Shown: piece after piece, positions 23,601 to 60,850 of the stretch
Layout of the letters: each line of letters opens with the position of its first letter
Numbering within the stretch: position 1 is the stretch's first letter
DNA from: Balanoglossus misakiensis
Taxonomy: Eukaryota; Animalia; Hemichordata
Direction of reading: 5' to 3'
Length of the DNA: 64,000 bases
Assembly (NCBI GenBank): GCA_040954595.2
Contig: CM082588.2
Location: 2,874,513-2,938,512, forward strand
Position numbers and translations under genes: made by a program
Notes under the pieces: model-generated
Seen by the model: the letters and a program-made list of their open reading frames with translations, nothing else
Database searches by the model: none
What the model was told of the DNA's origin: nothing

Positions 23601-23615
23601 TTTTTAATGAAGAAA

Positions 23616-36178: not shown

Positions 36179-37975
36179 TTACACCCATTCCCCGTTCACA
36201 TGTCCGTCCGACCCGTCGACATTCCGCGGCTTGGACACAAACATGGAGTTCAGTCTATCGTACGGGGAAGACGAGGCGTTCTTCGAGTTGGTCTTCGGCC
36301 TTACTCGGGTTCGGTGTTTGGTTTTCATCGGCACGGCTTCTTCTAGTTCTCCCGCCGCCGCTGCAGACTTCGCGTTGGTTGCCCGCCTTTTTCGGGTTTT
36401 ACAGAGAAACACGACGATGGCACAGAGGACGACAAGGAACATGAATGCGGCGACGGCCGATGCGGAAGTGATGTAGAGCAAACCCAAGTCCGTCGAGTGT
36501 CTCGTAGTTATGGCAACAGTTACGCTCGTTCGGCCATCCCTCGGACGGGATGTGTGCGGCGGCGCTGGAGGTGCGGAGATATCGACGATTTCACCTGGTT
36601 TCTCCACGGAAGTTGTCGTTGGATTTTGGCCTCTGCGTCGAGTGGCCGGACGTGGTGGCGAAGTTGCCGGCGGATTGTCCGCCGTCGAAAGGTGGCCTTG
36701 TGTCGTGTGCATACCTGTCTGCTTAGTTGCACGCGTTGAGGTGGGAAGGGAGATTGTTGTCGTTGCAGTGGAGGGGATGTCCTGGCGGTCATCACTTCCC
36801 GTGGGAAGTTCTGCCTGCATTGTCTGCAGTCTTGATGAACTTTGTACAGTTCCGGTAGACAGGAACATGTCTGTACTGCTATCATCACTTAGTGACGTCA
36901 CAGAGGTCGGGGATATTTCTGTCGTTGCGGAGATATTAACAATAACGCGACCGTAATTACGCGAATTTATAAGCGAAAACCCATAATCGACAGAACACGT
37001 AACGTTATATTCGCCTGTGTTACTCAGACCGTCCAACACAATGGTCCTGTTTCTGTCTTGGAAATGCACCACAATATCCCGACCACCTTGAACTGTCCAC
37101 AAATATTTGGCATTGTTTGGGGCAGCCGCCGCCACATCGCATGTGAATGAGGCATTGCGCATACCAGAGGTGTTAATAATGTACCCACTCTCAGGATACA
37201 CGTGTATTCTTGGTTGTTTGTAAACTTTAAACGGCCCGACCCGACAGTGTCTGTGTGTGCCACGATCCGGAACGGACAGGCGACACCGGAACTCGGTGCC
37301 TGTGTCGTCTTCAGTGGCCTGGAAACTAAAATTTGCGTAGACTCGATCGTGATCCTCGGCCAAAGTCACTCCGGCGACTGGTTGGCCGGAGCGGTGCCAG
37401 TGCAGCGCGACCTGCGGCGTCCCGGGATCTGATCGGCACGATAGAGCCATCACGTTGCCCTCGAATGTTTCATAGCTGTGGCTCACCTGGCCTTCGGTGA
37501 AGCAAATCGGAAACTCGTCGCGCGGGACCACCCGAATCGCCACTTCTGCAGGTAGAGATTCAACCATAACACTACCATTAGAGTTCGTTACAGCGCAGAC
37601 GTAATCCCCGGAATCGAAATCAGCCGTGTGGTAGTTCACGCCGGTAATAAATAAACGAAAAACCTCTGTGCCGTTCTCTTCTTTGCTATCGACGCTGTAT
37701 CTGTCTGGGTCGACCAGTCCGAAAGTTCCATCACCCGTTATCAGATCAGTTCCCGAACTGATGAACACTCCATCCTTGATCCACGATGCTCTTTGGTTTT
37801 CAGCCAGTGGTTCAGACAGCCGACATTTCAGAGACACCGAAGAGTTCGACACAGACCCATATTTCGCCTCCAGTTCAACGTCACTCGGTTCCTCAATGAA
37901 AGACAGAGCGGCATCTAATCGCGCACAATTCAAAACAAGGAGAACCACAATAAGTATCACACCGCGCCCGTCCAT
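36179..37975 (-). CDS. IgSF receptor 1: signal peptide, 3 Ig domains, long Thr/Ser/Pro mucin-like stalk, TM, ~70-aa tail with one ITIM-type motif (598 aa, single-exon CDS)
   Basis: Likely ATG at 37975 (MDGRGVILIVVLLVLNCARLDA). V-type domain C..W(IKDG)..DSGDYVC, second domain LSCRSDPGTP..FRC, third domain FTC..YLW..GEYNVTC. TM LGLLYITSASAVAAFMFLVVLCAIVVFLC followed by a basic stop-transfer. Tail contains SPYDRL and ends GEWV. Confidence 0.9.
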   Translation of the reverse strand: MDGRGVILIVVLLVLNCARLDAALSFIEEPSDVELEAKYGSVSNSSVSLKCRLSEPLAENQRASWIKDGVFISSGTDLITGDGTFGLVDPDRYSVDSKEENGTEVFRLFITGVNYHTADFDSGDYVCAVTNSNGSVMVESLPAEVAIRVVPRDEFPICFTEGQVSHSYETFEGNVMALSCRSDPGTPQVALHWHRSGQPVAGVTLAEDHDRVYANFSFQATEDDTGTEFRCRLSVPDRGTHRHCRVGPFKVYKQPRIHVYPESGYIINTSGMRNASFTCDVAAAAPNNAKYLWTVQGGRDIVVHFQDRNRTIVLDGLSNTGEYNVTCSVDYGFSLINSRNYGRVIVNISATTEISPTSVTSLSDDSSTDMFLSTGTVQSSSRLQTMQAELPTGSDDRQDIPSTATTTISLPTSTRATKQTGMHTTQGHLSTADNPPATSPPRPATRRRGQNPTTTSVEKPGEIVDISAPPAPPHTSRPRDGRTSVTVAITTRHSTDLGLLYITSASAVAAFMFLVVLCAIVVFLCKTRKRRATNAKSAAAAGELEEAVPMKTKHRTRVRPKTNSKNASSSPYDRLNSMFVSKPRNVDGSDGHVNGEWV

Positions 37976-38624
37976 GTTAAAAATGTCGACTGAACTCAAC
38001 TTCCACGTGCACACAAATAACAAGTTAGAGTGAGTAAGCGAGAATAAATACTCCTCGAAGTCAGAGCTCTCCAGCCATCCGGGTCCCCGACAATGTATTC
38101 TGTAATTGGATAACAGAGTTTGTTCTTCCCGCTCACAGTAGGTACACTCAGACCACAATCGCCACCCACTTCAAATACCTGCACATGCGGATATGTTACA
38201 GACGGGGCTGACGCCCTCTCTGACGGGTCAAAGTTCCAAACACCGTCCATATACATTTAGTATTGTCCTAGGCCTGTATATTATTAGACGTATTGTCTGA
38301 CGGTCATAAGTGCACAAGGTTATTACTCATTTTACGACAATAGTATAAATAATTGAAGTTCCTAAACTATAAGTTTACATGTATTATTTGTTTGTATTAC
38401 AATATGGCAGTTTAAGGGACTCTAGCTCTAGTACATTTTTTGAAGTTATTTTGCTCCATATTTTAACAACAGTCTCTAAGTTCTATACTGTCTATAGCAT
38501 TCTGAGATATCAAGTATCCCGTTGTTCACAGGCTATTAACTATATCCTGCATATGTGCATGCATGTTTTCTTTAAAAATGACGTCCAGCCGGACAATTTT
38601 GGGTCTTCCCTTTGGTTGTATATA

Positions 38625-40349
38625 TTATAAGGTTGTAATGCGCTCGACACGAAGTTCTGGGGTTTCAGTCAAAATATCGTTTCTTTCGTCTGATTCCCAA
38701 ACATTTCCGTCCTTCGGATAATCTGAACTTTGACTGCCGTCGCCGTTTGTATCATTGCTGTTTCGTGGCAATGACGAGATTTCGTCAGAAACCCTGCCAT
38801 CGCGCGGGGAGGCTTTGATGTCAGAAGATTGGACCAGTTTTACCGTTCGCGGGAATGACGGCTTTCGGCTTATTGCCGACATGTCCACGCTTTCAAATCG
38901 CTTATTGTACACGATAGTCTGCCCGACACTGTACTTTTCTAACTGCGACCCGATTCTGTACTGTCTCTTGTGGCGATAAACCTTTGCGTAGACTGTCACA
39001 ATGGCGAAAATGAGCAGAAGTCCGCCAACAACGGCGACTATAATGCAGATGACGAGAACTGTGTGAAATGTAGTGTTCGGTTCATCTGTGAAGGGGGCAT
39101 GAGAAGCAGTGGACATAGAGTTGTGATCTTGACCCGTCGTGGAATATCCAGTGACGTCAGGCCGCCAGTCTGTGGTGTTGTACGTGAACGAGATCTCTCT
39201 TTTGGCCAATCGACTTTTCGGTATCGGCATCGTGGTTTCCGGTTCCGGTTGTACGGCTGCTGCTACTGGCGCGTGCGGTATATTTACAGTCAAGGTGCTA
39301 CTTGCGTTCCGTGCACTGAAGCCGTAGTCAACCGTACATGATATAGTGTAGAGGCCGTTGTCTTTACTGCGCAGGTCATCCACTTCGATTGACCTGTTAC
39401 CATCCTGTAACTTAAAACGAATTCCCCCTGTCGACTGTCCCTGACGCTTGCTGATAAGCCAGATGTAGTTCTTAACGCCAGGAAGTATGCTTGTGTTGCA
39501 CGTCAAGTGGACTGAATCAGCGCCTGAGTTTACAACATACTGTCCGGGCTGAATTGAAACTTTTGGTTCTTCGAAGACAGCGACGGTCGTGAGGCACTCT
39601 CTGTCGCCAAAACTTTCGTGGTGCACTTTACAGATGAACTGTGAATTATTTCGAGGATGCAACGTATAGTTCAACATTAGCTGGGTTTGAGAAAGCCCTG
39701 CAGATGAGTTGACGAGTGGATTCGGATCATTATTACTGTACCAGGCCGCGGTTACTGGTGGAAACCCACACTCAGTCACACAGCTAAGTTGTAGGGAGTC
39801 TCCCGCGAATAAAAGTACCTCGTGGCTCGGTTGTCCGTTTGCTAAACACAAGGGGTGAGCGAAAAGTTCGACTTTCGCTGTGTTCGACCGAATGATGATG
39901 ACGTCACTTTTCACGCCCAGCACGGCGCAGTAGTAGTCACCGTTGTAGAGATCGGACACGGTCTGGAGTGACCGTGGATCGGAGACCCTCAACAGCGAGA
40001 AGTGCACATTGTACGTGCCGAATTCCCCGGCAGTCTCGATGTTGTACACGTAGTCACCTGGAAAGTCGACATCCCCGTCGACTTGAAGTATTTCCTCGTT
40101 ATCGCTGATGCGAACGCCGTCTTTGAACCACGACACTTTCTGCTCGGGTACCTGCAGGTCCGCCACTCCACAACGGAGCCGCACACGGCGCCAGTTCAGC
40201 GATTCTCCGTAGTTCAACGCACCGGTGACCGGTTTCGGCACTTCGGTGAAGCGTGGCTCTCGGCTTTCCGAGCTCGCGATGGCTATTATCACAGCGAGAG
40301 ACAGCAACCGGTACGGAAGGTAGCACGACATGGCTTTGGCAACGATCAT
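38625..40349 (-). CDS. IgSF receptor 2: signal peptide, 3 Ig domains, stalk, TM, ~120-aa tail ending in a class I PDZ-type motif (574 aa; alternative ATG 40331; single-exon CDS)
   Basis: LRCGV..VSWFKDG..NGDYYCAV, LSCVTECGFPPV..FICKVHH, LTC..YIW..DNGLYTISC. TM VLVICIIVAVVGGLLLIFAIVTVYA. C-terminus ERITTL. Confidence 0.9.
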   Translation of the reverse strand: MIVAKAMSCYLPYRLLSLAVIIAIASSESREPRFTEVPKPVTGALNYGESLNWRRVRLRCGVADLQVPEQKVSWFKDGVRISDNEEILQVDGDVDFPGDYVYNIETAGEFGTYNVHFSLLRVSDPRSLQTVSDLYNGDYYCAVLGVKSDVIIIRSNTAKVELFAHPLCLANGQPSHEVLLFAGDSLQLSCVTECGFPPVTAAWYSNNDPNPLVNSSAGLSQTQLMLNYTLHPRNNSQFICKVHHESFGDRECLTTVAVFEEPKVSIQPGQYVVNSGADSVHLTCNTSILPGVKNYIWLISKRQGQSTGGIRFKLQDGNRSIEVDDLRSKDNGLYTISCTVDYGFSARNASSTLTVNIPHAPVAAAVQPEPETTMPIPKSRLAKREISFTYNTTDWRPDVTGYSTTGQDHNSMSTASHAPFTDEPNTTFHTVLVICIIVAVVGGLLLIFAIVTVYAKVYRHKRQYRIGSQLEKYSVGQTIVYNKRFESVDMSAISRKPSFPRTVKLVQSSDIKASPRDGRVSDEISSLPRNSNDTNGDGSQSSDYPKDGNVWESDERNDILTETPELRVERITTL

Positions 40350-41369
40350 CAGTTGACTGGACGCGTATAAACCGACTACAACATTGACAGCAGGGAAAAG
40401 AGTTTAGAGATATGATCATATGAAACTGGTCACAGACTTCCTTCATCCGAAAGTAAAGGCAGGATATCGGAAGTTGTGACCCGAGTAAGCGCTTTCATCT
40501 GAAAATGCATCATTGTTATTTATTAAATAGACATGAGCCTAACATTGCCATTTTCTTTTCCGCATTATATTTTGTTATTGTTGATAAGTGAAACTCAGAT
40601 GCTGCCGGCCATCAATGCCAATGCGATATCCACACCGACTGGCATCCCGCTATTACGCTAGTGAAACCATGAGCAACGGGGCGACTTTCACCAATGAAGC
40701 AAGTCACGCTGGCGGCGTTTTGGAAATGGTGAATGTTACTCATTTCCTGTTTAACCTTGCAATACTAGTAGCACATGTACCCCTTGATCGAGGATTGCTT
40801 ATAGCTAAAGGCCTTTTTTAGAAATGTCAAGGGCATTGGATAAAAACGTGATGAAAATTGTTATTTCTATTACACTGAGCTACGGGAGCTATTCCGTACA
40901 CCTATGAAACGACATCTTCTAACAACCATGCACCTGTACAACCGATCTTTGGACTATTGAAATGACAAGCTGTAACAGTTAGTGGTAGCAAAGTGAACTA
41001 GGAATTTCGAAAACATTATTATTAACAATTTTCGCCCTGGGAGCTGCGTCATCCTACATGATTCATTTTTACCGACCCCGTGACGTCATGCAGTGTCTAA
41101 AGCTGCAGCCAAACAAACGCGGTGTATGAAAAGAATCGATGCCCTAACAACAACCCTTGGTGACAGGTCCCAAGTCATAAATTTACAAATATGCATTGTT
41201 CAACTTTGATAAAACATACAACAACACTTGAGTTATATCTGAACAAGTCACTGTGGTCCAGTTGATGTAACTTTGCTCGCTTCTCCCAAACACACTTGTT
41301 AGCTGCAAGGCCGCAGTCTCACTGTCTGTTCTCTCGAACGACCGTTTTGAGAAGCTCAAGTTGGTCGCC

Positions 41370-42410
41370 ATGGCGCTAAGAAGGAGAAAGATGACGATGA
41401 TATTGTCTTGTCTACTTTCGATTGCTTTTGGCGTGTTTTTCTCCGAGGCAAACTTGGTGACCGGGGCTCAGTGTCCGCTTCCCACCAACAGCAGTGGTGA
41501 ACCGTGCGAGTTGCATCTGGGTCCTGACCACCGTCTGGTCACCGATGGAGTTGACACCGTCCACTTCGAGTGTCACGAAGTCGACAGCGGATCCTGTCCT
41601 CCGGAGGCGTATTCTTGGACTGTGAATGACGAAGTCATCGGAGACGAGCACGCCTCGATTGAAATCATCTACGACACCAAGAAAGGGAAAAGCCTTCTTT
41701 ATATTTCCGATCTGTCGCATCAATGGAACGGGGCGCACACGATCACCTGCACGGCGAACTTCACCGACGGTAGCGAGACGAGCAGATATGCTTGTCTGGA
41801 GGTTAATATGACCAGTCCGTCGTCATCCACCGTCGCAGTGCCGACGACTGGCGGGATTCTCGCTTCAACAGAAGAACGACCAGTCATCACCGGCACTGAT
41901 GCACCGACCAGCAAACGACGTACAAGCGTGACCGTGGCAAGCAGACCATCGGAAACACACGGCTTGACCGATGTCAGTGCCAAGCGCACGGTTTCGACTT
42001 ACACAGGACAGACGATACCCGCATCTCCAACACACCACCCAACCCAGATTTCGTGGACAGAGGCCTACGAAAGCACCGCGTTATCAACAACGTGGGTAGT
42101 TATCGTTTCCATCGCATCGGCTGCCTTCATCATCATTATCCTCATCGCCCTGTGCAAAGTCGCATCGCGTCGCTCGAACTCGGGAACTCACGTCTTTGAA
42201 AACGAAACGTACAGCGCAGAATTCTCGCCATACAAAGACACCTCTCACGTCATCAAATTCGACAACCAGTACATCTCGGAATTTTCGACGTACGAGGACA
42301 CCGCATACGTTGTCAAGAACGAAACAAATTCCCCCGGCAACCCGCGAAGTGAGCGCCCGCCGGAAGCTGTCGGAATGAACGGTTCTTGCAATAGCTCGGT
42401 TCCGACTTAG
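41370..42410 (+). CDS. IgSF receptor 3: signal peptide, one Ig domain with extra Cys, Thr/Ser stalk, TM, Tyr-repeat tail (346 aa, single-exon CDS)
   Basis: First ATG is at 41370 (the ORF track begins at TTG). FEC..YSWTVND..NGAHTITC. TM WVVIVSIASAAFIIIILIALC. Tail has a duplicated Y-x-x-EFS-x-Y-x-DT unit. AATAAA at 42865. Confidence 0.85.
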   Translation: MALRRRKMTMILSCLLSIAFGVFFSEANLVTGAQCPLPTNSSGEPCELHLGPDHRLVTDGVDTVHFECHEVDSGSCPPEAYSWTVNDEVIGDEHASIEIIYDTKKGKSLLYISDLSHQWNGAHTITCTANFTDGSETSRYACLEVNMTSPSSSTVAVPTTGGILASTEERPVITGTDAPTSKRRTSVTVASRPSETHGLTDVSAKRTVSTYTGQTIPASPTHHPTQISWTEAYESTALSTTWVVIVSIASAAFIIIILIALCKVASRRSNSGTHVFENETYSAEFSPYKDTSHVIKFDNQYISEFSTYEDTAYVVKNETNSPGNPRSERPPEAVGMNGSCNSSVPT

Positions 42411-44134
42411 GCTTCTCTAACGACCGAAATATTTGGAGGTCTGGAATGTGACATATCAGTTATCGTAATATCATTATGACAAAAATATGGCGGACATGTG
42501 TTCACCCTACGAAAAGTCCAAAGCACTATTTTACTCGCAAAGCGACAGGTACTTGACAACATTCCTCCACTAACATAATCCCTTGATAAAAAAAGACTAA
42601 AATGCATTCTGCGCACTATGTAGTCAACAGGTTTGGAAACCGCTTTGACTTTGGACTGTTTTCATCTATTCATGATGGAAGTGAATTTTATTTTTTATAT
42701 ACAATCTCCTATTTACTCAGCCGTCTTCGAATCACTGGAGACAACCATTTTATCAGGTTACCTCGGAACTTATTATTGTATCATCAATCTTCAGCCTCTT
42801 GTATTTTTATTGGACTATAGTCACCTGTTATTATTCTGACATATATTAGACATTGCTAAGGTATAATAAATAACCAGAGATATAAGCTAAGTGCAACGAT
42901 ATATTACATTGTGTGCGTAGACTTTGCTCGCCAATCACATTGTGAAAATGTCCTCCCGTGATTTCTCCTCCTGCCCTCTAATCGACTTTTGTGACGTCAT
43001 GACATCTTTCTACCGAAATCTCACCTATAGTCACATTCCCTCTATCTCAGGGACTGTACCCTATCTAGTCTAGCACTGTCTACAGTGCACAACAAAATAC
43101 TGTAGCACATAAAGCATATCTGATACGGGATGGATATTACGAAGGCCTGCCAGTGCATGAATTTCAACCAGCAATCAGCGTTAGTGGAAAGCCGTGAGTG
43201 GACCAAAGGTTTCGGAAAGAACTCCAGCAATTCGTGGAATTGAAAGATACATGCAATCCATCGAAGTAGGAAATGAAAGTTTACCTCGGGTTTCTAGTAT
43301 TTTGTCTGTAATGTAAATGTTAGAGGGCTTCGGCACCCACCCACGTCATGCAGCTAATGTTTTCGGTTTCCTTCATTTGTACGTGATTCTGGCCAAGTTT
43401 CGGCGAGTCACATCTGGAGGTAGCAAAACGACTAAAAGCTTTCAGAAAATCGACTTGTACTTTTCAGAATTCGAACCCAGGTCTGCTTCCGAAAAGTACG
43501 CGACTACCCATATTGAGACGTTGTGCGTGGACACATAAACGTGATACTGCAAATTATTGAACAAATTGTGAGGGCGCTTTTCCCATGGTCATCTCTACTT
43601 TACATACGGCCACACATGGCTAAAGTACCATTTCTTAGTGTTCTAAAGAGCGTGTTGCGGCGCTCCTTTATGTGTGTGACACCCACATTGGCTATACAAT
43701 ATATTTATATTGTCCTTGTAAACAATAGTTAAATTTGCATAGGTGACCGTATACCTTTAATTTGATCATTTGAGGGTCATTGTATAGTCTGCCACTTAGG
43801 TAAATCCTGAAACCACATATTTTGGCAATACTTGGTGAGTTTCACTACCATGATACAACTTGGTGACTTCACTTGACCTGAACATGACAGCAGTTTGATT
43901 TCCGTTAAACGACGTTTGAATCAAAGGTTACTTTGCCAACGGTCTGTCGTGAGCACAGCGTGTCATTCATGTCGCTCTGAGTTATGGGTTCATTTGTCTT
44001 AGTTTTTGATGTATGGATTTCGCAAAAGCTTATAAACGTCACTAAATTGGCATTGCAAACATATACAAGGAAGCTTGTGATCTCGAAGCGTCACTGCATA
44101 TTTGGTCTTCACTGAGTCTCCAGTCGGTCCTGTC

Positions 44135-45262
44135 ATGAAGCTGGTGGTGATTGCATCTTGGTGCCTGTGGTGCTACACTTACGGCCAGCAGCTCCCCGGA
44201 GGAAACAGTCAATGCACAGGGGAGGACAACCGTCTGATACAAGACGGCGCACTTTCAGGGGAATGCGACAGTGTCCTGGGATTCAGATGTGGGATTCAGA
44301 TGCACCCTTGCCCATCTGACGGTGTTACTGTCAATACGACGGAATCTGTTGCTGAATTTCGCTGTTACTATGACAAAGACTTGTGTCCTGAAAGTGTCGT
44401 ATGGTATATAAACGGCAAAATTGGTAATAACGATAACAACGTGGACGAACTTGAATTACATGTAACGAGTTTAGGGAAGGGCAGTCAACTATGCATTTCT
44501 GGATTTACTCGTACTAAACACAGCGGCAATCATTCGGTGACATGTTCCTTGATTGTTGGCGGGGAAAATTATAATGAAACTACATTTCTGTGGGTCAATA
44601 TACCATCTATATCCACTCAATCTTACACATTTCCGACAACCACGCTTGAAGACGAGCAAAAGACCACTGCTGTGACCGAAGGGACCCAGTCTAACATTGT
44701 CGTCATTGTTGCCATTTCTGCAACTCTCGGAGCGGCTGTGATCATCGCCACAATTATTGCAGCGCTGTGTTACTGTAAGTGCCGCCGGAAGGCAAAGAAA
44801 TCGAGAGAACAGCGACAGACGCGGAGAGAAGTGACGGCCAACGAGTACGCCGACTCTTCTTTCATGATGCGAGTCACCGCAGAATCCGCGTCGCCGATGA
44901 CGTCATCGGAAATACCGCGGTATGAGGAACTAGCCGAGATGCAGTCCCCTCGACGGGGTGACATGATCAATGGAGCGACCAATCACATGTCACATGACGT
45001 CACACCGAACACAGAATTCCAAGGCTATGCCGACATCGAACAGATAAACCATGTATACACAAAACCAAACAAGAAAGGCGCAGGGCAGAAACTGGAAGCA
45101 GAGGAGAAAGACGCCACTCCGGACCTCGACCAACTGTACTCCAAGCCGAACAAGAACAAACAACACCAGAATCGGGAAGTGGCTTCCAAGACACCCGGTG
45201 ACGATATTGAGCACCTGTACGCCAAACCCGATAAGAAAAACAAACAGCATCACAAAGACTGA
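44135..45262 (+). CDS. IgSF receptor 4: signal peptide, Cys-rich leader, one Ig domain, short stalk, TM, tail with six Tyr motifs including three Y-[TSA]-K-P repeats (375 aa, single-exon CDS)
   Basis: ATG at 44135 (MKLVVIASWCLWCYTYG). FRC..VVWYING..SGNHSVTC. TM IVVIVAISATLGAAVIIATIIAALC followed by YCKCRRK. Tail motifs NEYADS, PRYEEL, QGYADI, HVYTKPNKK, QLYSKPNKNK, HLYAKPDKKNK. AATAAA at 45770. Confidence 0.87.
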   Translation: MKLVVIASWCLWCYTYGQQLPGGNSQCTGEDNRLIQDGALSGECDSVLGFRCGIQMHPCPSDGVTVNTTESVAEFRCYYDKDLCPESVVWYINGKIGNNDNNVDELELHVTSLGKGSQLCISGFTRTKHSGNHSVTCSLIVGGENYNETTFLWVNIPSISTQSYTFPTTTLEDEQKTTAVTEGTQSNIVVIVAISATLGAAVIIATIIAALCYCKCRRKAKKSREQRQTRREVTANEYADSSFMMRVTAESASPMTSSEIPRYEELAEMQSPRRGDMINGATNHMSHDVTPNTEFQGYADIEQINHVYTKPNKKGAGQKLEAEEKDATPDLDQLYSKPNKNKQHQNREVASKTPGDDIEHLYAKPDKKNKQHHKD

Positions 45263-46089
45263 TGTCACGACTTTTAACTCAAAGATTGATGTTATTGAAT
45301 TGACAATATAGACATGACAGCTATGTCATGACCTTATAATTCATTTGACGGCGTCACAGGTTTATTTTTTATATCATGAAACCACATCCTGACAAATTAT
45401 CAATCGCGCACCTGTAATATAATCACTACAAGGAAATTTCGTCTAAACCCCATGGACACGCCTGAGTTATATTTCACTTTTTCAAAACCACACGTATTAA
45501 TAGTCATATACATGTATGGTTATGACAAACATGCTCTTTCCCAAACAAAACGTCTGTTGGCTTTATACGACCATCTCTTTATATCACGTACCGATATGAC
45601 AATCAGTGAGTGGAATTAGTGACAATTATGCTCGGACACTTTCAGTATATACATGTATTGTAGTTCAACAATGATTGGCATTATACACGGAAACGGAAGA
45701 TAGAATATACACCAAGTCAGTATACATTAAATGTTCTGTGATATGACTTGTAGGCCTTTGTGAGAAAACAATAAATGACATGATGCAGGTTTGCTATTAT
45801 TATGCATTGTACTCTTTTCATTGATTGGGGTATTTCTTGGAACATGGCTTAACTGTATTCACTGGTTACTGAAGCAGTGTGCCCTTAACTGTGCGTAAAG
45901 TATAATTCATTAGCATGACAATAGATCAATATTATGACTGTCTATATTTAGCATCGATTTTACCATATTGTGATGACGGTTGAAATGACCCGGATTAAGG
46001 AAGTACTGCAGCTATGTTATGGGATGATGAGCACGTATTCTGCAGATGTCAAATCTTATAAAACCATCGCAGCCAACCAAACCAACAAG

Positions 46090-47574
46090 ATGCAGTTATA
46101 TGTCAGTAATCTCTGGTTCTTGCAGGCGTTCTTTTATTTAGCACCGCAGTATCGGCATGGATATGGTTCCACAACACAGGCACCAACACCCAGTTTTGAG
46201 AATACACCAAGCAGCAAAACTGAAATATTCGTATACGGGGACACGAGGGCAATAGACATTCAACTGAACTGTAAGGTAACAAATCTACAGTCTGATCAGA
46301 AAGTGTCATGGCTGAAAAGATTCGCCGATACAATCATCAGCGATGATCGTATTCTTCGTACAGAGCATGTCGATCATTTGGTGGACTATGATAGATATTC
46401 TATCGTTGGTGATGAGACTGTTGGAGAATACAACTTAGAGATAAGATCGGTGAGTTACCAAACTGCCGAGTTTGACAGTGGACGTTATCACTGCGCTGTC
46501 TTCTATGATGACCCCACTATCCTGGCTGCTGCCATAAGATCAAGATTTGCACAAGTGAATATCTACGTTGTTCCTCGTACCATATACCCACAATGTCTAG
46601 TCAATGGCGTCAATGGGACACTAACAACTAACGTCACTGCAGATGAAGCGGTAACTTTGTTATGTCAATCAGATGCTGGGTATCCTCATGTTACCATGAC
46701 ATGGTCCCGTGGTGACCAAGCTGTCATTTTGGCTGATGGCGAATCAGTTCAGAATGATATCGCATCAGTGCAATATACGTGGATTCCAAATTTAGAAAAC
46801 GACACTACTATTTTCACATGCTCGATTGATCATCAAGCTTTTACCTCATCCGGAGGTGACAGACTGCGCACATGTTCGGTGGGACCTTTCGACGTTCAGC
46901 CACAAACAACCGAAATTTCAACAGTTGCATTGCAAGCGACTAGTGATGCTGATGTCACGGAGAGCACCCATCTGCGACCGACGACCGAGAACTCTACAGG
47001 TACAACGGAGTCTAACGACACTACAGATGTTCGGCAATCAACGGTTTCTCCGGAAGTTCCCGAATCAGTCAACGACACTGTAAGTGCCGCCCCTCTCTCT
47101 CCAAACACCACAGGAGAAGTGGGTGGAGGGGGGACTTTTACCACTGGTCAAAAGAACAGAACAGTTATCATTGCTGCAGCCTGTGCTGTTATTGGCTTGC
47201 TTCTCATACTGATATGCGTAATCGTAATAATATGCATGGCGCGAAAATCAAGGAGAAACAACAGCAACGATGAGACATACGCTCAGAACGTCGGTCCATA
47301 CGGTAATGAAAGTGGTAATCCCGCGATAACTCCCAGTGGTGCGAGAGAAAATAACGGTCAGCCTCGCCCGGACTCCATCGGCACTAACTATCCTCAACGG
47401 GAGGAATCCATGGATTTTGCATCGTTCGGGAAGACAGAGAGGAATCTGCCCACCGGAAGAAACAGGAATGTGGAAGGACTCACTTACGCGGATTTAGACT
47501 TTTCTAAAATGTCCACAAAAGGGCGTAAACCGGTTCGCCGTGAAAGCACCGTGTATGCAGATGTACTGATTTGA
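46090..47574 (+). CDS. IgSF receptor 5: 2 Ig domains, stalk, TM, tail with ITIM + ITSM; inhibitory-receptor-like (~494 aa, single-exon CDS)
   Basis: Probable ATG at 46090 (MQLYVSNLWFLQAFFYLA); in-frame upstream ATGs exist, so the start is uncertain. LNCKV..VSWLK..DSGRYHCAV, LLCQSDAGYP..FTCSIDH. TM VIIAAACAVIGLLLILICVIVIICM. Tail LTYADL and TVYADV. Confidence 0.9.
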   Translation: MQLYVSNLWFLQAFFYLAPQYRHGYGSTTQAPTPSFENTPSSKTEIFVYGDTRAIDIQLNCKVTNLQSDQKVSWLKRFADTIISDDRILRTEHVDHLVDYDRYSIVGDETVGEYNLEIRSVSYQTAEFDSGRYHCAVFYDDPTILAAAIRSRFAQVNIYVVPRTIYPQCLVNGVNGTLTTNVTADEAVTLLCQSDAGYPHVTMTWSRGDQAVILADGESVQNDIASVQYTWIPNLENDTTIFTCSIDHQAFTSSGGDRLRTCSVGPFDVQPQTTEISTVALQATSDADVTESTHLRPTTENSTGTTESNDTTDVRQSTVSPEVPESVNDTVSAAPLSPNTTGEVGGGGTFTTGQKNRTVIIAAACAVIGLLLILICVIVIICMARKSRRNNSNDETYAQNVGPYGNESGNPAITPSGARENNGQPRPDSIGTNYPQREESMDFASFGKTERNLPTGRNRNVEGLTYADLDFSKMSTKGRKPVRRESTVYADVLI

Positions 47575-48177: not shown

Positions 48178-49899
48178 ATGTATCTGTTCGTTGGTGATAA
48201 TTTCCTTGTATGTATCTGCCTGGGTTTACTGTTGCACAGTCACACTGGGAATGGACAGACAACACCGACACCCGAACCCAGTATTCTGAATCAACCAAGC
48301 AGCAAAACGGTAACATTTGAACATGGGGAGACGAGAACAACTTCCATTGAACTGGGGTGTAAGGTAAATAATCTACAGTCCGATCAGAAAGTATCGTGGC
48401 TGAAAGGATTCGCCGATACAATCATCAGCGATGATCGTATTCTTCGTACTGCGCATGTAGATCATTTGGTCGACTATGATAGATATTCCATCATTGGTGA
48501 TGAGACTGTTGGAGAGTACAACTTGCGGATAAGGTCGAGTTACCAAACTGCTGAATTTGACAGTGATGAACGTTATTACTGCGCTGTCTTCCATGATGAC
48601 CCTACTATACTGGCTTCTGTCATACGATCAAATGTTGCACAAGTGAACATATACGTTGTTCCTCGTACGATATACCCACAATGTTTCATAATCAACGTCA
48701 ATGAGACGCCAACAACAGATGTCACTGAAGGTGAACCAGTAACTTTGTTATGTCAATCAGACGTTGGATATCCTCCAGTTACCATGACATGGTCGAATAA
48801 TAACACTGCTGTGAATTTAACAAATAGTGTATCATCAGTTCAGAACGATATTACCATATCTGTTGAATATACGTGGATTCCAAAATTAGATGATGGACCT
48901 GTTGTTTTCACATGCTTAATTGACCACCCTGCCTTCGCCTTGTCTGGAGGTGGTAGACCCCGCACAACATGTTCTGTTGGACCCTTCAACATTCATGGAA
49001 GAACAACTCCTCAGCATACCACGCTATCAACGCAGAAAGAAAGGTCTACCACGATTGCAACACAACAAACCAGTGGATACAGTACTATTGCAAACACCGT
49101 TCCCATGTCACCCACGAGTAACCTCGATGAGCAGAGCGGAACGATGGCTGTCGCTGTAGGCAGTGCCAGCGCTGGTGTGGTTGTGATGCTGTTGGTTATC
49201 GTCGTTGTAGCTGTGCTCTGTATTAGAAAATCAAGGACAGACAAAAGCCATCACACCAGAAATGACCGGGACTTTATCGAAAACCCTTACGCTGTAGATA
49301 TCGTAGCCAACAAACCTGGGCATAATGACGCGAATCCTTATGACAGCATTGAGACAGATGACGTGGGTCGTGGAAGGGGCAATGTAGTGGAAGTTTCTGA
49401 TGCCGGTGCGGACAATCCAGACCTCGGCACAAATCGACAAATGCGTCAAAATGAAAGTGTTGGCATGACGACGATTGCGACACAGCACTTTAATGGAGTC
49501 GAGAAGCAAGGACCAGTTTATGCCGTGGCAGACAAAGTACAGAGGGAAAAGATGCAGAGGGAAGTAGATGCGGTGGTAGATTCAAGAGAAGATTTGAAAG
49601 AAAACAACTTTGCAGAGAATTGTGACCCTAAATCTTCTGAAACTGCAACCTGGCAACCAACTGCGGACTTCCCCTTTCCTAACAAAGTAGAGACGCACGT
49701 ATACGATGACGTGAGCGCTGGAAACATCGGACATGACCCGCCTGAAAATGCCGCAGATTCTGTGCGCGAGAAAATGAGCAGAAACGTGGAGGGGCTAAGC
49801 TACGCCGACCTGGATTTGAAGCAGCTGACGAAAGGTAGGAGAGTTCGGTCCGGCCAGGTGGACGAACCCCGGACCGTATACGCCGAACTGCAGTTGTGA
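48178..49899 (+). CDS. IgSF receptor 6: close paralog of receptor 5; 2 Ig domains, TM, ~220-aa tail with six Tyr motifs ending in ITIM + ITSM-like (573 aa, single-exon CDS)
   Basis: ATG at 48178 (MYLFVGDNFLVCICLGLLLHSHTG). D1 is nearly identical to that of receptor 5. TM AVAVGSASAGVVVMLLVIVVVAVLCI. Tail NPYAV, NPYDSI, PVYAVA, HVYDDV, LSYADL, TVYAEL. ATTAAA at ~49964 and AATAAA at ~50033. Confidence 0.9.
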   Translation: MYLFVGDNFLVCICLGLLLHSHTGNGQTTPTPEPSILNQPSSKTVTFEHGETRTTSIELGCKVNNLQSDQKVSWLKGFADTIISDDRILRTAHVDHLVDYDRYSIIGDETVGEYNLRIRSSYQTAEFDSDERYYCAVFHDDPTILASVIRSNVAQVNIYVVPRTIYPQCFIINVNETPTTDVTEGEPVTLLCQSDVGYPPVTMTWSNNNTAVNLTNSVSSVQNDITISVEYTWIPKLDDGPVVFTCLIDHPAFALSGGGRPRTTCSVGPFNIHGRTTPQHTTLSTQKERSTTIATQQTSGYSTIANTVPMSPTSNLDEQSGTMAVAVGSASAGVVVMLLVIVVVAVLCIRKSRTDKSHHTRNDRDFIENPYAVDIVANKPGHNDANPYDSIETDDVGRGRGNVVEVSDAGADNPDLGTNRQMRQNESVGMTTIATQHFNGVEKQGPVYAVADKVQREKMQREVDAVVDSREDLKENNFAENCDPKSSETATWQPTADFPFPNKVETHVYDDVSAGNIGHDPPENAADSVREKMSRNVEGLSYADLDLKQLTKGRRVRSGQVDEPRTVYAELQL

Positions 49900-51109: not shown

Positions 51110-51176
51110 ACAACAAAACTACAGCAGCAGCAGCAACAACCAAAACAACAACAACAACAACAACAGCAACAACAAT
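51110..51176. repeat. Imperfect (CAG)n/(CAA)n trinucleotide microsatellite
   Basis: Read directly; it explains the spurious poly-Cys ORF at 51088-51270. Confidence 0.85.
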
Positions 51177-51893: not shown

Positions 51894-53600
51894 ATGCTGA
51901 GGACTGTCTTCACGACGGAGTTCGTGGTGTTCTTCTGGCTGATCAGCGCGAACACCTGCCTGGCGGCGGTGAGTTTTGTTGTTCAGCCGAGCGATGTCGC
52001 TAGAGTTTTCGAACATGGCTCCACCGACACCCTGTCGGTTGTCTTGCGATGTAAGGTATCGGGGCTACTGTCATCGCAAAAGGTATGTTGGATGAAAAAT
52101 GGGCGGATTATCAGCGATAACCTTAATGTGCGAAGTATCGTTACGTTAGTGGATCACAGGTACTCAGTGAAAAGTGATGGAGATTCCGGACAATTTAATC
52201 TGCAAATTTCTCCCATTAATATTTACCATGTCACGTACGACGTAGGACAATACATATGTGCCGTTCTGACAAGAGCTGATGAAAACCGTGTCATAGTTTC
52301 GCACAGTGCAGACGTGGATATATATGTGATTCCGCGAGTGGAATACCCAACGTGCCTTTATAACGATACAGAAAGATCTGGTGAAATAACCGTTCTACCG
52401 GGATCAACTGTGATTTTATCCTGCCAATCCGACTTAGGAACCCCGCGTGTTTCCCTCGACTGGTACGTCGGTGGACCGGACCAGTCATCTCAACCACTCC
52501 CAGCAACAGAATCGGGAATAACCAACGAAGGGTTGGCTTTTATTAAGTACGGATCACTGCTGTCATCTTTGTACGATGGGGCCGTTTTCACTTGCCATTT
52601 ACAGCACCCCGGATTTAACGTCCCCGGTCACGAAAGATTAAACACAAACTGTACAATTGGGCCTTTCAATGTATTGCACGCTCCCGAGGTCACTTTACGA
52701 CCGAGCGAGAATGTTTTGATCACGACAGAATACGCGACAGTGAAATTTCAGTGCGCCTCGGTAGCTAACCCCCAAGTCCGTCGATATCTGTGGTTCTTCG
52801 ACAACGTCCCGGTCGTTGAAAACGACAGCAGATTTGTCGTCAACAATGGTGGACAGAATCTGACTATTTTTGGATTCAGCAGTAACGATAATGGCGACCA
52901 TGTAGTGTCGTGCAAGGCGGAAAATGAGTACGGCGACGGAACAGATGTTGTTTCTGTTTCGGTCGCTATAAGTCCACCACACTCATCGACGCTGCCTCAG
53001 GAATTTTCACCAAAGACTGCCTTTTCAACGACGCAAGGGAATACGAGTCGAAACGGCAGTAACACCTACGCCCCTGAACGGCAAAAAAATACCAATTTAG
53101 TTATTTATATCACAATACCCTTATGCGTCGCAATAGCAGCCGTTGTGGTCCTAATTGTGGCGTTTTTTGTTAAATTTCGGAGGAAGAAACCGGGTGATGA
53201 ACCACCTCGGGATCAGGATTTTAATAGTTTCACCAATGATACCTGCACGGTCGAGTCGGAGTCGACGGTCATCAGCGAGGAAATAAAAAATTGGGACACG
53301 GATACATACATGAACGTCAGCGCCCTTCAAATGTACGAAAACTCGAGGTCAACCACGGAAAGCCTCGAATCGAGAACAGATGACGACGTCAGTGAACGAC
53401 GGGATGCCAGGAACGACAAATTCCGGGAAGAGGCGGTCTACACGAAGCGACACGCCGGCGAAGAAGCCGTGTACGTCCAGCGGATAAGCCAACCGAACGG
53501 CGTGCCGGCGGGCTGGGTTGTGGACAGTCCGGACGGGACAAGATCAAACGGTAATGCCGCAGGGAGAAGACCCCGAAGGGGAGAAATATTTTACATATAG
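51894..53600 (+). CDS. IgSF receptor 7: 3 Ig domains (nectin/CADM-like layout), TM, tail with YxN motifs and a hydrophobic PDZ-type C-terminus (568 aa, single-exon CDS)
   Basis: Signal peptide MLRTVFTTEFVVFFWLISANTCLA. LRCKV..WMKNG..DVGQYICAV, LSCQSDLGTP..FTCHLQH, FQCASVANP..YLWFFDN..CKAENEYG. TM LVIYITIPLCVAIAAVVVLIVAFFV. Tail YMNV, YENS, two EEAVY units, ending GEIFYI. Confidence 0.92.
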   Translation: MLRTVFTTEFVVFFWLISANTCLAAVSFVVQPSDVARVFEHGSTDTLSVVLRCKVSGLLSSQKVCWMKNGRIISDNLNVRSIVTLVDHRYSVKSDGDSGQFNLQISPINIYHVTYDVGQYICAVLTRADENRVIVSHSADVDIYVIPRVEYPTCLYNDTERSGEITVLPGSTVILSCQSDLGTPRVSLDWYVGGPDQSSQPLPATESGITNEGLAFIKYGSLLSSLYDGAVFTCHLQHPGFNVPGHERLNTNCTIGPFNVLHAPEVTLRPSENVLITTEYATVKFQCASVANPQVRRYLWFFDNVPVVENDSRFVVNNGGQNLTIFGFSSNDNGDHVVSCKAENEYGDGTDVVSVSVAISPPHSSTLPQEFSPKTAFSTTQGNTSRNGSNTYAPERQKNTNLVIYITIPLCVAIAAVVVLIVAFFVKFRRKKPGDEPPRDQDFNSFTNDTCTVESESTVISEEIKNWDTDTYMNVSALQMYENSRSTTESLESRTDDDVSERRDARNDKFREEAVYTKRHAGEEAVYVQRISQPNGVPAGWVVDSPDGTRSNGNAAGRRPRRGEIFYI

Positions 53601-55450: not shown

Positions 55451-55666
55451 TCCGATGACATATCAACGATACTGTGGCATTCCTTGGTCTTTTGTGCTTC
55501 AGGCCGATAATTAAGCAAGACGTATTGTTATAGTATTTTGCGTGCAAGCGTGATTTGGAGAACCGTGTCGTAACTACAAACAATCTAAATGTTTAGCAAG
55601 CAAAGCCACCCACGTCAGTTTCCACGTGTACGCACAGGGGGCAATTTGAAGGTGCATGGTCAGACA

Positions 55667-55704
55667 GTGACTGACTGGCCGTGACTGACTGACTGACTGA
55701 CCGA
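55667..55704. repeat. Interrupted (GACT)n microsatellite
   Basis: gtgactgactggccgtgactgactgactgactgaccgacc read directly. Confidence 0.75.
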
Positions 55705-58700: not shown

Positions 58701-59605
58701 GCCACCTGTGGAGTACGCAGCCAGGCGTGACTGTGCACTCAGTCTCCATGACCCGTTCGCTCAGGTTGCCTTCGTCATATAACAGCGCAACCAACGGTAG
58801 AAATGCTAGGAGATCCAGGCTATGCTGGTTGAGGGATCACGAAGGCTGGCGTAGATGGCGTGCTTGGAGAAAACAAGTTGTGTTGCTGTGCAAATTCAGG
58901 CAACCAACTCGAAGATGCGAAAGTGTAGCGACTGTATTAAGCAAAGCCGAAACGATTGCTGCCGGATCGCAGCCACCAAAGTCATTTCAGTTACTATAAC
59001 CATCGACATTAGAAAAGAATATTGATTGCGCTATAACCATGGAAAAGACACCTGGACAATCGATAGAAAATAAATATACAACGAAAGCACTTAAAGGCCA
59101 AAATTAGTTCAGTTCCGTACACAACTTGGAAAAGCAATACCATAATTGGCCAAAGATGACGCCAATATGATCGTAAATACATATGTACATATTGGGCATT
59201 CTTTATCGGTGCTTGCATACCGATCTGGTGATAAGTTTACTACATGCTAAGGCGTGTTCTGGTCATGTTTACCTAGCTCTAGGTCCAAGCAACTTCGATG
59301 ACCCAGTAAGCAAAAAAAATCCCCCAATTTTACCGTATCAGCCTGGCTTTTACAGCGCATTGTGTTAACAGCAATAAAAAGAAACCAGCCCGTTTTCATT
59401 GTGAACAGTAATTGGACCCCGGTCGAAGTTATCTTAAAACTGTTACCATTGTTGACATGGTAACCTGAATAAAGGCTCAGAATGTCCTTGTAGCCAAGAC
59501 ATACAATGCAGGTCATGTGAGGTCAGCAAGATGACCTATCCGTCAGTTTCGCTAGCCTGAAATGGCATGAGTGAGAGGTTCCAACATTCGTCAGAGTGAG
59601 AATAT

Positions 59606-59656
59606 GGAAAGTCCCGCGGGAAATTCATTCACAAGTATGTCTTTAAGTTGTGTGGT
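59606..59656 (+). promoter_or_regulatory. Paired NF-kB sites plus a RUNX site just upstream of IgSF gene 8
   Basis: GGAAAGTCCC (59606-59615) is the reverse complement of the canonical kB site GGGACTTTCC. GGGAAATTCA (59618-59627) is a 9/10 match to GGGAAATTCC. TGTGGT is at 59651-59656 and the ATG at 59690. Confidence 0.55.
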
Positions 59657-59689
59657 TGCAGCTGAGTTGTAGAGACAGAGATCTGAAAT

Positions 59690-60850
59690 ATGCTGTTTGG
59701 GTTCTACAAGCCATTGTGTGTTTCACTGTGGTCGTTGATAATCGTGAAAACCAGCTCATCACGCGCCGATGCATTGCCCTCCTTCAGACAACAGCCAAGC
59801 GACGCCGACATCGTGTTCGACCACGGACAGACAAGCAGCGAGACAATTTCCTTAGAGTGCCAGTTGGACGGAATAACCGCCAACCAGACAGTGTCGTGGA
59901 TAAAGAACGGCTGCGTTGTAAGCCAAGACTACCAGGTAATCGACTGCGATCCTGACCAACGCCATCGCATCAACAAAAGCATCGGCAATCACACATACAA
60001 CCTATACGTCTCAGTCAACATTCAACATGTTTACGTCGACCACGGGAACTATACGTGCGTCGTCTTCGACCGAGAGTCTGACGTAGAGGTGACCCGCTCC
60101 AGGACAGCCCGCATAAACATTTCCGTTGTTCCCCGCGAGACACACCCTGTCTGCCAGGACAAAGACTTCAACGCTTCGGATATCATCAAAGAAGGGCAAA
60201 AATGCATTCTTTATTGTATGTCGGATCTTGGATGGCCCTACGTGCAGTTGGAACTTCACAGGATTTGGGGAGAATCGACGACAGTTATTCAGCCGACAAG
60301 AGTTTACACAGAAGGCGGTTTTATTCATGCCGAGTATGACTGGTACGCGACCAGCGAGGATAACGGAGTGCAATTTATGTGCCGGGCCACCCACCCCGGC
60401 TTTTCGGTTCCGCGTGAGCCGGAGCGAAAAACTAACTGCACTTTTGGACCATACAATAACGTCCATTATGCGCCAAAGGTGGCGCTAGAGCCCACACAAT
60501 ACAATATCACATTCCCCCAAGATATCACGTTCAACTGCAGCGCCTCGGCCAATCCACAGGTTGAAAAGCTGGCCTTGCAGCTGGGAAATATGTCAGCACT
60601 CGTCACGACTGGGAATACGTTAACTTTCAGTACCACTCTCCCAGCTGACAGTCAGCTCAATGGCCAATATGAGGTCACCTGCGCGGCCGAAAACGACGCC
60701 GGCAAAGGGATGGCCACTGGCATTCTGATTGTACAGTTTAACGTTGAAGGTGACAAAGACGCTGTGTCGACGTCACCACCTGCGGTCCAAGTCGGCGTAC
60801 ACCTTTGGTTTGTGATAGTAATAATCAAAATCTTATTTCAGACTCCATGA
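59690..60850 (+). CDS. IgSF protein 8: 3 Ig domains with no cytoplasmic tail; probable GPI-anchored form (386 aa, single-exon CDS)
   Basis: Signal MLFGFYKPLCVSLWSLIIVKTSS. LECQL..VSWIKNG..DHGNYTCVV, LYCMSDLGWP..FMCRATHPGF, FNCSASANP..YEVTCAAENDAG. Ends with small residues (DAVSTS), a spacer and the hydrophobic segment VGVHLWFVIVIIKILF immediately before the stop. Most similar to receptor 7. Confidence 0.88.
   Translation: MLFGFYKPLCVSLWSLIIVKTSSSRADALPSFRQQPSDADIVFDHGQTSSETISLECQLDGITANQTVSWIKNGCVVSQDYQVIDCDPDQRHRINKSIGNHTYNLYVSVNIQHVYVDHGNYTCVVFDRESDVEVTRSRTARINISVVPRETHPVCQDKDFNASDIIKEGQKCILYCMSDLGWPYVQLELHRIWGESTTVIQPTRVYTEGGFIHAEYDWYATSEDNGVQFMCRATHPGFSVPREPERKTNCTFGPYNNVHYAPKVALEPTQYNITFPQDITFNCSASANPQVEKLALQLGNMSALVTTGNTLTFSTTLPADSQLNGQYEVTCAAENDAGKGMATGILIVQFNVEGDKDAVSTSPPAVQVGVHLWFVIVIIKILFQTP

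Follow-up and report, generated by a model that had tools for sequence, protein, structure and literature searches.

Intronless immunoglobulin-superfamily genes in an acorn worm: a candidate recognition array with predicted inhibitory members

Background

Vertebrate self-tolerance depends centrally on inhibitory receptors of the immunoglobulin (Ig) superfamily whose tails carry ITIM-ITSM, and how such receptors arose among deuterostomes is poorly documented. A locus of the hemichordate Balanoglossus misakiensis bears on this question: a 64-kb stretch of its DNA, here called the window, holds a cluster of Ig-superfamily genes with differing tails, which an earlier note had read from the letters alone as an immune or allorecognition complex. 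Is this a recognition array with immune-type outputs, or a set of adhesion genes with a developmental role? No published description of the array was found in the literature searched.

Organization of the array

The window contains eight uninterrupted ORFs of 346-598 residues, at 36179-60850, that encode Ig-superfamily surface proteins. As first described, they lie within 25 kb, two on the minus and six on the plus strand:

36179..37975, minus: g1, 598 aa; leader, D1 (V), D2 (four-cysteine C2), D3 (I), long Ser/Thr/Pro stalk, TM segment, 73-residue tail with a single ITIM-like motif (36251-36268) and a PDZ-type end
38625..40331, minus: g2, 568 aa; D1-D2-D3, stalk, TM, 123-residue tail with a class I PDZ-type end
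41370..42410, plus: g3, 346 aa; one Ig domain, of D3 type and with additional cysteines, then stalk, TM and a tail in which a two-tyrosine unit occurs twice (about 42201-42323)
44135..45262, plus: g4, 375 aa; a single I-set-like domain (weakly D3-like), short stalk, TM, 167-residue tail with three YxKP motifs of 27-residue period (45056-45229)
46090..47574, plus: g5, 494 aa; D1-D2 without D3, stalk, TM, tail ending in ITIM and ITSM, their tyrosines 23 residues apart (47479-47565); the start codon was picked by alignment to g6, with four in-frame ATGs upstream
48178..49899, plus: g6, 573 aa; D1-D2, stalk, TM, 224-residue tail ending in ITIM and TxYxxL, their tyrosines 26 residues apart (49795-49890)
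48400..48420, plus: within g6, seven codons following the core Trp of D1 (end of strand C and C-C' turn; strands assigned from the g7 structure model)
51894..53600, plus: g7, 568 aa; D1-D2-D3, stalk, TM, 142-residue tail with two YxN motifs (53307-53342) and a class II PDZ-type end
59690..60850, plus: g8, 386 aa; D1-D2-D3 and a C-terminal hydrophobic stretch, no tail

The frame is unbroken in all eight genes from the N-terminal leader to the tail or GPI-like end, and none has an intron within its coding region, unlike the adjoining GPCR gene, which is split into exons. A crude pattern search of the 150 bases upstream of each ATG found no splice acceptor in any of the eight, and no ninth copy or remnant was found within the window. 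The tailless end of g8, judged by eye, is a probable GPI-anchor signal.

Domain architecture and kinship of the eight genes

Pfam detected Ig families in seven of the eight genes, although g3, at E 0.002, missed the cut-off, and g4 gave no match; the g4 domain, when modelled by AlphaFold (pLDDT 76), is matched by I-set Ig folds, as the g7 D1-D3 model is by Ig folds, and the Ig beta-sandwich with its core Cys-Trp-Cys is present. Six genes (g1, g2, g5, g6, g7 and g8) share a V domain and a four-cysteine C2 domain, the cysteine pattern recurring in 6/6 window D2 domains, and the complete three-domain layout with TM occurs only in g1, g2 and g7. All-against-all comparison of these six (in a database of eight sequences) gave E<1e-13 at 23-60% identity. 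Most array ectodomains are 23-35% identical and D1 pairs other than g5/g6 27-42%, which bears out the earlier description of mostly very divergent members; g6 is a recent paralogue of g5, with 79% DNA identity across D1-D2. The mutual relatedness that had been proposed for all eight extends to g3, whose domain scores 34 bits against the D3 profile (maximum of 200 shuffles, 4; best CD22 domain, 16.5), but it becomes weak in g4, because its 13.6 bits fall under the CD22 control. We regard g3 and, weakly, g4 as probable single-domain derivatives.

Relatives of the array

Word-index homologue searches were nearly empty (two CD22 matches among 2532 candidates, 0/5771, and one crinoid match among 549), and it was a full-library profile search that placed the family. 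Its nearest named relatives are all from hemichordates, eight from Ptychodera flava and two from Saccoglossus, and all ten form one clade with six window units (support 98/95; 0.98 in a 92-row tree), g2 having the longest branch of these six. The P. flava protein XP_070567272 shares 63% identity with g5 and groups as the sister of g5+g6 (100/99); only g5/g6 have so close a P. flava partner, so that there is no one-to-one orthology across the array. Monophyly of the window genes was rejected (p=0.005), the clade spans Ptychodera and Saccoglossus, and in the tree the paralogues predate the split between these two. Thus, the array is not species-specific, contrary to the initial reading of it as lineage-specific. 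The in-clade P. flava models lie on four contigs, three sharing one 771-kb scaffold, and 7/10 in-clade models have no TM segment by our own threshold; models scattered over several contigs, many without TM, are what is seen in birth-and-death families. P0015, an in-clade P. flava model, likewise has no TM segment and may be mis-joined. The models of the clade from P. flava and S. kowalevskii (XP_070567272, XP_070550477, XP_070550467, XP_077868580) bear automatic names such as syg-1-like, kin of IRRE-like, CADM-like or nectin-3-like, several are incomplete, and no study of these proteins was found in the literature searched.

With respect to the conserved neural adhesion genes, nephrin orthology was rejected by the AU test (p=0.003 for g7, 4e-6 for g5), run against five nephrin-sized rows, one of them named nephrin. 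With one to three Ig domains and no coding introns, the array genes have neither the 8-9 Ig plus Fn3 layout of nephrin/SYG-2 nor the five Ig domains of Kirrel/NEPH/SYG-1, and they form a multi-copy, divergent family, in contrast to the conserved single genes SYG-1/Kirrel, nephrin, nectin and DIP. The likeness to SYG-1/Rst/NEPH-Kirrel, nephrin, nectin/Necl (CADM) and DIP lies in the D1-D2 fold, and these are the top sequence and structure matches; at the level of patterns, g1, g2 and g7 also have the V-C-C three-Ig ectodomain and PDZ-binding end of nectin/CADM. SYG-1 ranks first by sequence. By structure, adhesion proteins with neural or developmental roles come first: Rst (Z 15.8, rmsd 5.7, 202 aligned), Necl-4 (Z 15.8, rmsd 9.2, 280 aligned), SYG-1 (Z 15.6, rmsd 5.5, 207 aligned) and DIPs (Z 15.4), with SIRP-gamma lower (Z 14.1, rmsd 10.1, 278 aligned). 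The array genes appear to be members of a broader ambulacrarian family of SYG-1/Kirrel/Necl-like proteins.

The earlier note had recognized no named family, yet the array resembles the intronless KirrelL/Kirrel2L/IgTM/Hypp1164 group of echinoderms, which likewise has three Ig domains, a stalk and one TM segment (intronless being stated for kirrelL; PMC8903837). In that paper's protein file, read by eye, D2 has an additional pair of cysteines at the beginning and the end, giving the same succession of V, four-cysteine C2 and I-set domains, stalk and single TM. The window genes differ in forming a hemichordate clade with D1 insertions of its own (A'-B and E-F loops), in having D3-less, D3-only and tailless members, and in tandem ITIM-ITSM tails, the KirrelL sequences compared being records cut short at the tail. 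The crinoid protein P0003, with a KirrelL-type D2 motif, served as proxy for KirrelL in a tree that was built without KirrelL itself, an identified five-Ig Kirrel orthologue or chordate nectin/CADM rows; it fell outside the array clade and was rejected as sister of g7 (p=0.005).

These affinities favor the main rival to an immune reading, to which we give a substantial though lesser probability: a developmental code for adhesion, fusion or wiring, in which paralogues in different tissues mediate sorting, fusion or neurite wiring, as do KirrelL, SYG-1/Rst or DIP/Dpr, and tyrosine motifs tune cytoskeletal and growth-factor signaling instead of immunity. Besides the sequence and structural rankings, it draws support from the age of the paralogues, from the PDZ-type ends of g1, g2 and g7, and from the echinoderm relatives of the same layout, which are skeletogenic-cell genes; KirrelL, the only echinoderm member tested, mediates skeletogenic cell fusion (PMC8903837). 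The lack of one-to-one orthology speaks against it, as do KirrelL orthologues that, judged by eye, look far more conserved between echinoderm classes.

Sequence variation and selection

Additional g5/g6-like versions occur in public DNA contigs; they diverge by about 12%, where neighboring DNA diverges by 1.7%. In run X1, window-identical contigs occur together with second versions that differ at 103/876 bases (11.8%) of the g5/g6 ectodomains, while among the contigs listed the neighboring DNA differs at 110/6461 (1.7%). The second versions at g5/g6, 9-18% divergent and from one sample, may be paralogues rather than alleles. One g6-like version has a swapped D1 C-C' loop: the codons at 48400..48420 are replaced, with six of seven residues differing (codons read by hand). 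The end of g6 D2 occurs in at least three versions. Summed contig depth rises 2-6-fold across g5/g6 D1-D2, a figure that is not a copy number. In other contigs the frames stay open through compensating indels, and g3 has a 1-base deletion at 41357, upstream of its ATG, and a 21-base in-frame deletion at 42000, within the stalk. We discounted an apparent deletion that joins 37747 to 40356 in run X2: its junction falls at GATC, as do other ends in X2, and it is likely an artefact of proximity ligation.

Between g5 and g6 dN/dS is 0.34 over D1-D2 and 0.36 in D1. Among the differences listed, g1 has nine nonsynonymous and eight synonymous (about 0.37 per site) and g6 ten and six; the eight and one of g2 are too few to be meaningful. 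By these codon counts g5/g6 and g1 show the mark of purifying selection, which a developmental code would predict. Low polymorphism with purifying selection had been named in advance as evidence against an immune array; the second part is seen in g5/g6 and g1, yet divergent g5/g6-like versions with a replaced C-C' loop exist, and these fit a developmental code poorly.

The high divergence and extra copies are restricted to g5/g6 D1-D2, the other six genes being at ordinary difference levels. This would suit a mixed array, in which g1, g2, g7 and g8 are old adhesion paralogues of unrelated function, g5/g6 are fast-evolving pathogen entry receptors or gamete-recognition proteins, and clustering simply results from tandem duplication. 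Viruses commonly use nectin-like proteins as receptors (PDB rows of the structure search), but no match to g5 was found in the viral contigs searched; among 60 candidate stretches in metagenome contigs a single one passed, its match confined to the low-complexity residues 393-457 of the tail. The retained inhibitory pair and the repeated tyrosine units of g3 and g4 are also left unexplained, and we consider a mixed array very improbable.

Cytoplasmic tails

Tail motifs were scored against 5000 shuffles per tail, with 15 patterns tried. The terminal ITIM+ITSM-like pair of g5 and g6 was matched in 0/5000 shuffles, as were the three exactly spaced YxKP motifs of g4. Hence the pair claimed for both genes is beyond chance, though the last motif of g6 is TxYxxL and not a strict ITSM. 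The single ITIM of g1 (p=0.02), the two YxN motifs of g7 (p=0.03) and the PDZ-type ends of g1, g2 and g7 (p=0.01-0.04) are present as claimed but weak, since 15 patterns were tried. The repeated unit of g3 was recovered as two copies 20 codons apart with 38/57 bases alike; it does not form an ITAM. A 40-residue ITIM-ITSM block is kept at 50% identity between g5 and g6, whose remaining stalk and tail are unalignable; it is the only tail segment common between paralogues, and this unlikeness of tails also counts against a developmental code.

No ITAM was found in the seven tails of the window and, as already observed, none of its seven TM helices has a charged residue; therefore the classical activating partner is absent there, and the activating members of the mixed inhibitory/activating design proposed for the array were not borne out. 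Elsewhere in the family, the tail of P0015 closes with a canonical ITAM (shuffle p=0.005), and two ITAM-like pairs occur in the near-clade model P0120, which makes activating tails likely in the family. The ITIM-ITSM pair was seen in 0/10 in-clade models; P0007, the co-orthologue of g5/g6, stops after D2.

Comparison with clustered receptor systems

The analogy that had been drawn with clustered vertebrate and Alr receptors stands for the cluster, its fast divergence, the differing tails and an inhibitory-type pair. SIRP, LILR/KIR, FcRL/XFL and NITR share with the window clustering, ITIM/ITSM-bearing inhibitory members (here g5 and g6), domain-number variants and birth-and-death evolution. By the definition of paired receptors used here (PMC2413239), the analogy fails for near-identical ectodomains of opposite sign: at 23-35% identity most array ectodomains are too unlike, only g5/g6 are close and both are inhibitory-type, and a charged-TM or ITAM twin is absent (0/7). 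The vertebrate genes are multi-exon whereas those of the window are single-frame; the likeness is one of design, and homology is not claimed.

Hydractinia Alr is an invertebrate cluster of divergent Ig receptors whose tails carry ITIM (and ITAM) and diverge more than the ectodomains (10.1101/2022.03.04.482883). Its genes are spliced, multi-exon and exon-shuffled, with an Fn3-like fold and core Cys/Trp often absent (same source). In the window the core Cys/Trp are canonical, the frame is unbroken, and no Pfam Fn3 match was found, Ser/Thr-rich stalks standing in its place. That the array is a true histocompatibility locus of this kind, with allele-specific homophilic binding, we consider very unlikely, despite the clustered ITIM-tailed receptors and a g6-like version 12% different with its binding-face loop swapped. 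An Atlas look-alike (score 0.93) of P0019, an in-clade model, bears the name 'histocompatibility ligand', a lead only, as many Ig clusters share this score. The versions come from one sample and could be alleles or paralogues alike, six of eight genes vary ordinarily, and the Fn3-like fold and exon structure that define Alr are absent. Further, acorn worms are solitary, and we know of no natural fusion among them.

Proposed mechanism

The reading that we prefer, with confidence and doubt about evenly balanced, is that of a recognition array evolving by birth and death, some of its members inhibitory and its role likely immune-regulatory. The tandem genes would belong to a hemichordate branch of the SYG-1/Kirrel/Necl-like family and would likely serve as a panel for cell recognition. 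Within it, g5 and g6 are predicted to be inhibitory, quieting immune or epithelial responses when 'self' is encountered. By analogy with SYG-1, Rst and nectin/Necl, which bind via the GFCC' face of D1, D1 would bind a partner on the facing cell, most probably one from the family, for instance a tailless protein of the g8 type. YxN is a Grb2 and YxKP a Crk or Csk SH2 specificity. From motif consensus, Src-family kinases would phosphorylate the tails, the g5/g6 tyrosine pair could dock a tandem-SH2 SHP-type phosphatase, YxN of g7 Grb2 and the YxKP repeats of g4 Crk or Csk, and the PDZ ends may connect g1, g2 and g7 with junction scaffolds. The array probably arose from an intronless ancestor, a retrocopy as proposed for kirrelL, by tandem duplication, and in-frame deletion would have left D1-D2 only in g5/g6 and D3 only in g3/g4, with no exon shuffling because coding introns are absent. 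Some adhesion molecules, PECAM-1 and PZR among them, have ITIM pairs as well. The low g5/g6 dN/dS, the neural or developmental identity of the top structural neighbors and the fusion role of KirrelL run against an immune reading.

Implications

The compact, intronless array offers small, readily cloned candidates, ties a developmental fusion family (KirrelL) to immune-type signaling tails, and lets domain-number variation arise without exon shuffling. A bolder proposal, which we think doubtful, is that acorn worms, independently of vertebrates, turned an intronless Kirrel-like retrogene for adhesion into a complete Ig receptor system with inhibitory and activating arms. It would have hypervariable D1 binding faces and variable copy number in g5/g6, ITAM relatives elsewhere in the genome and GPI-anchored g8 as ligand or decoy, and would provide missing-self-type control of immune cells in a deuterostome outside the chordates. 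Even if its role is developmental, the array defines an unannotated ambulacrarian receptor family that is now mislabelled as Kirrel, CADM or nectin.

Cluster organization and domain architecture

Six-frame translation of the window revealed eight long open reading frames at 36179-60850, two on the minus and six on the plus strand, each opening with a methionine and leader, ending in a tail or hydrophobic stretch and free of internal stops, which bears out the earlier note's eight Ig-superfamily genes and their orientations (g1-g8 in order). The leaders of g4 and g5 fall below the hydrophobicity threshold used. GC content is 46-53% within these genes versus 36-43% between them. The GPCR-like gene upstream in the window is split into short separate exons (ANF_receptor match in 3 of 5 pieces); hence unbroken frames are a trait of the eight Ig genes and not of the genome, unbroken here describing the coding frame alone, as the UTRs may contain introns.

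Genes of the cluster and their neighbor (D1, V-type Ig domain; D2, four-cysteine C2; D3, I-set type)
~29400-33000, minus strand: class C GPCR-like gene of several exons with ANF_receptor ligand-binding pieces, GABA-B-like by eye
36179-60850, two minus and six plus:
g1, g2, g7: D1-D2-D3, stalk, TM and tail
g8: D1-D2-D3, then hydrophobic end
g5, g6: D1-D2 alone
g3, g4: single D3-type domain with extra cysteines

The four conserved cysteines are present in 6/6 D2 domains, and pairwise D1 identity is 27-42%, apart from g5/g6 (80%), in agreement with the claim that the members are related yet mostly very divergent. The g3 domain scored 34 bits by profile (shuffles 4, CD22 control 16.5), and by this score g3 belongs to the family; the g4 domain scored 13.6 bits, under the CD22 control, its model adopts an I-set Ig fold and it has its extra cysteines in common with g3. 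A profile made without window rows recovered exactly the six D1-D2 units in the window and zero remnants.

Several other features accompany the cluster. The GPCR-like gene shares the strand of g1 and follows immediately downstream of it. An 87-base satellite (3973-23605, ~226 copies, 98% match) yields long spurious minus-strand ORFs and has a diverged relative of 2.3 copies at 25910-26111. Between g3 and g4 lies a short element of high copy number (~43721-43764; contig depth in the thousands, many loose ends), probably one end of a SINE or MITE. The g5 frame stays open for a further 46 codons upstream of its putative start and contains four additional ATGs in that stretch (45952-46089), where a different contig carries two deletions of 3 bases each.

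Relatives and origin

A D1-D2 profile search of 1.84 billion representatives gave 2275 matches at E<=0.001, of which the best 150 were used and 30 of these looked up by name; as the profile was window-derived, close rows were favored. Among the matches listed, the best single-unit ones are hemichordate, with P0007 of P. flava 63% identical to g5. The six window units cluster with the identical ten proteins (8 P. flava, 2 S. kowalevskii) in FastTree (all 86 recovered units plus the six; 0.98) and IQ-TREE (LG+G4, 51 rows retaining 45/86 recovered units, those left out being mainly the repeated units of multi-unit proteins plus excess rows of nephrin size; 98/95). This placement points to an acorn worm as the likely source of the window. 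The hemichordate clade has D1 insertions of its own and is nested in a wider group (97/88) that also takes in three-Ig proteins of sea cucumbers and crinoids. The proposal of a lineage-specific array does not hold at the level of the species: monophyly of the six window units by themselves was rejected (p=0.005). On orthology to neural adhesion genes, which phylogeny was to check, tree tests rejected joining g7 or g5 with nephrins; joining g7 with the crinoid protein P0003 was likewise rejected.

Four three-Ig relatives in the crinoid Antedon (P0084, P0104, P0107, P0126) come from contigs of one and the same length, have nearby accessions and Tyr-rich tails, and are likely a parallel echinoderm cluster. 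P0004 (from the acorn worm Glandiceps talaboti, automatically named hemicentin-like), P0005 and P0008 are long proteins with 5-15 tandem four-cysteine D2-like units each; they are a multi-unit offshoot of the window-gene family.

The earlier note recognized no named family. By eye, over the ~400 letters available per entry, the echinoderm KirrelL, Kirrel2L, IgTM and Hypp1164 share the V, four-cysteine C2, I-set, stalk and TM layout of the window genes (PMC8903837). KirrelL is absent from the profile matches listed and from the trees; we would describe the window genes as a sister radiation to it. In the portions consulted of the same source, kirrelL is intronless in every echinoderm examined, possibly a retrocopy in origin, and required in skeletogenic cell fusion (PMC8903837). 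SYG-1 was the top sequence match in a solved-structure search, and the g7 model (pLDDT 81) placed Rst, Necl-4, SYG-1 and DIPs level (Z 15.4-15.8), with SIRP lower (14). That the array is a developmental adhesion code is a reading we hold possible, with some doubt.

Cytoplasmic tails

Tail motifs were compared with 5000 shuffles per tail, 15 patterns being tried. In g5 and g6 the tails end in an ITIM plus TxYxx[VIL] pair, and g4 has three YxKP motifs; shuffling reproduced neither (0/5000 each), and both lie beyond chance. The other proposed motifs are present with weak significance given 15 patterns: the single g1 ITIM (p=0.02), two YxN in g7 (p=0.03) and PDZ-type ends (p=0.01-0.05), which g5 and g6 fit too. 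The sole significant tail-tail similarity joins the final 40 residues of g5 to those of g6 (50%, E 1e-7); this end block has therefore been conserved while the remaining tail diverged. In the g1 tail (36200-36230), a five-residue stretch resembles that preceding the g5/g6 ITIM and has no following tyrosine; it is possibly a remnant.

We found no ITAM in the window tails and, as claimed, no charged TM residue in g1-g7. An activating arm is described in the part of PMC2413239 consulted as the defining feature of paired receptors, whereas the window genes have none. P0015, an in-clade P. flava model, ends in a canonical ITAM (shuffle p=0.005), in a model that has no TM and is possibly mis-joined. 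A different reading, in which old adhesion paralogues of unrelated roles merely neighbor one fast-evolving pair (g5/g6), appears improbable to us.

Variation and selection

Three DNA runs, all of one sample, contain the window sequence. Outside the g5/g6 ectodomains, six long contigs of run X1 differ from the window at 110/6461 bases (1.7%), versus 103/876 (11.8%) for three pieces of divergent second versions over these ectodomains, the contigs being hand-chosen among the matches listed. Window-identical contigs coexist with second versions at 2/3 g5/g6 places. In one second version, g6 residues 75-81, in the C-C' region, are exchanged (6/7 positions differ); the C-C' face contacts partners in SYG-1 and nectins. 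Loose contig ends give at least three versions of the end of g6 D2, and therefore at least one extra paralogue, provided the sample is one diploid animal. Comparison of g5 with g6 gave a dN/dS of 0.34, and this value and the nonsynonymous:synonymous counts among the differences listed (g1 9:8, g6 10:6, g2 8:1, the last too small to be informative) speak against diversifying selection. Strict allorecognition we regard as an improbable role.

Proposed function

D1 would bind a partner on an opposing cell, and the tails would be phosphorylated by kinases. g7 may dock Grb2 and g4 Crk or Csk, partners that we assume, and g8 might act as ligand or decoy. The g5/g6 tails would recruit an SHP-type phosphatase, following the ITIM definition and SHP binding set out in the sections consulted of 10.1101/2022.03.04.482883; those of PMC4030455 gave no motif consensus. 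No published account of clustered Ig receptor genes in a hemichordate turned up in the mainly open literature covered, at the level of titles and abstract openings, and hemichordate genome papers or supplements may list the expansion; the portion consulted of a 2025 invertebrate IgSF review mentions echinoderms once, merely as a phylum (PMC11999971). The cluster is real, apparently undescribed so far and a variation on a known design, and there is an even chance that its role is immune-regulatory recognition.
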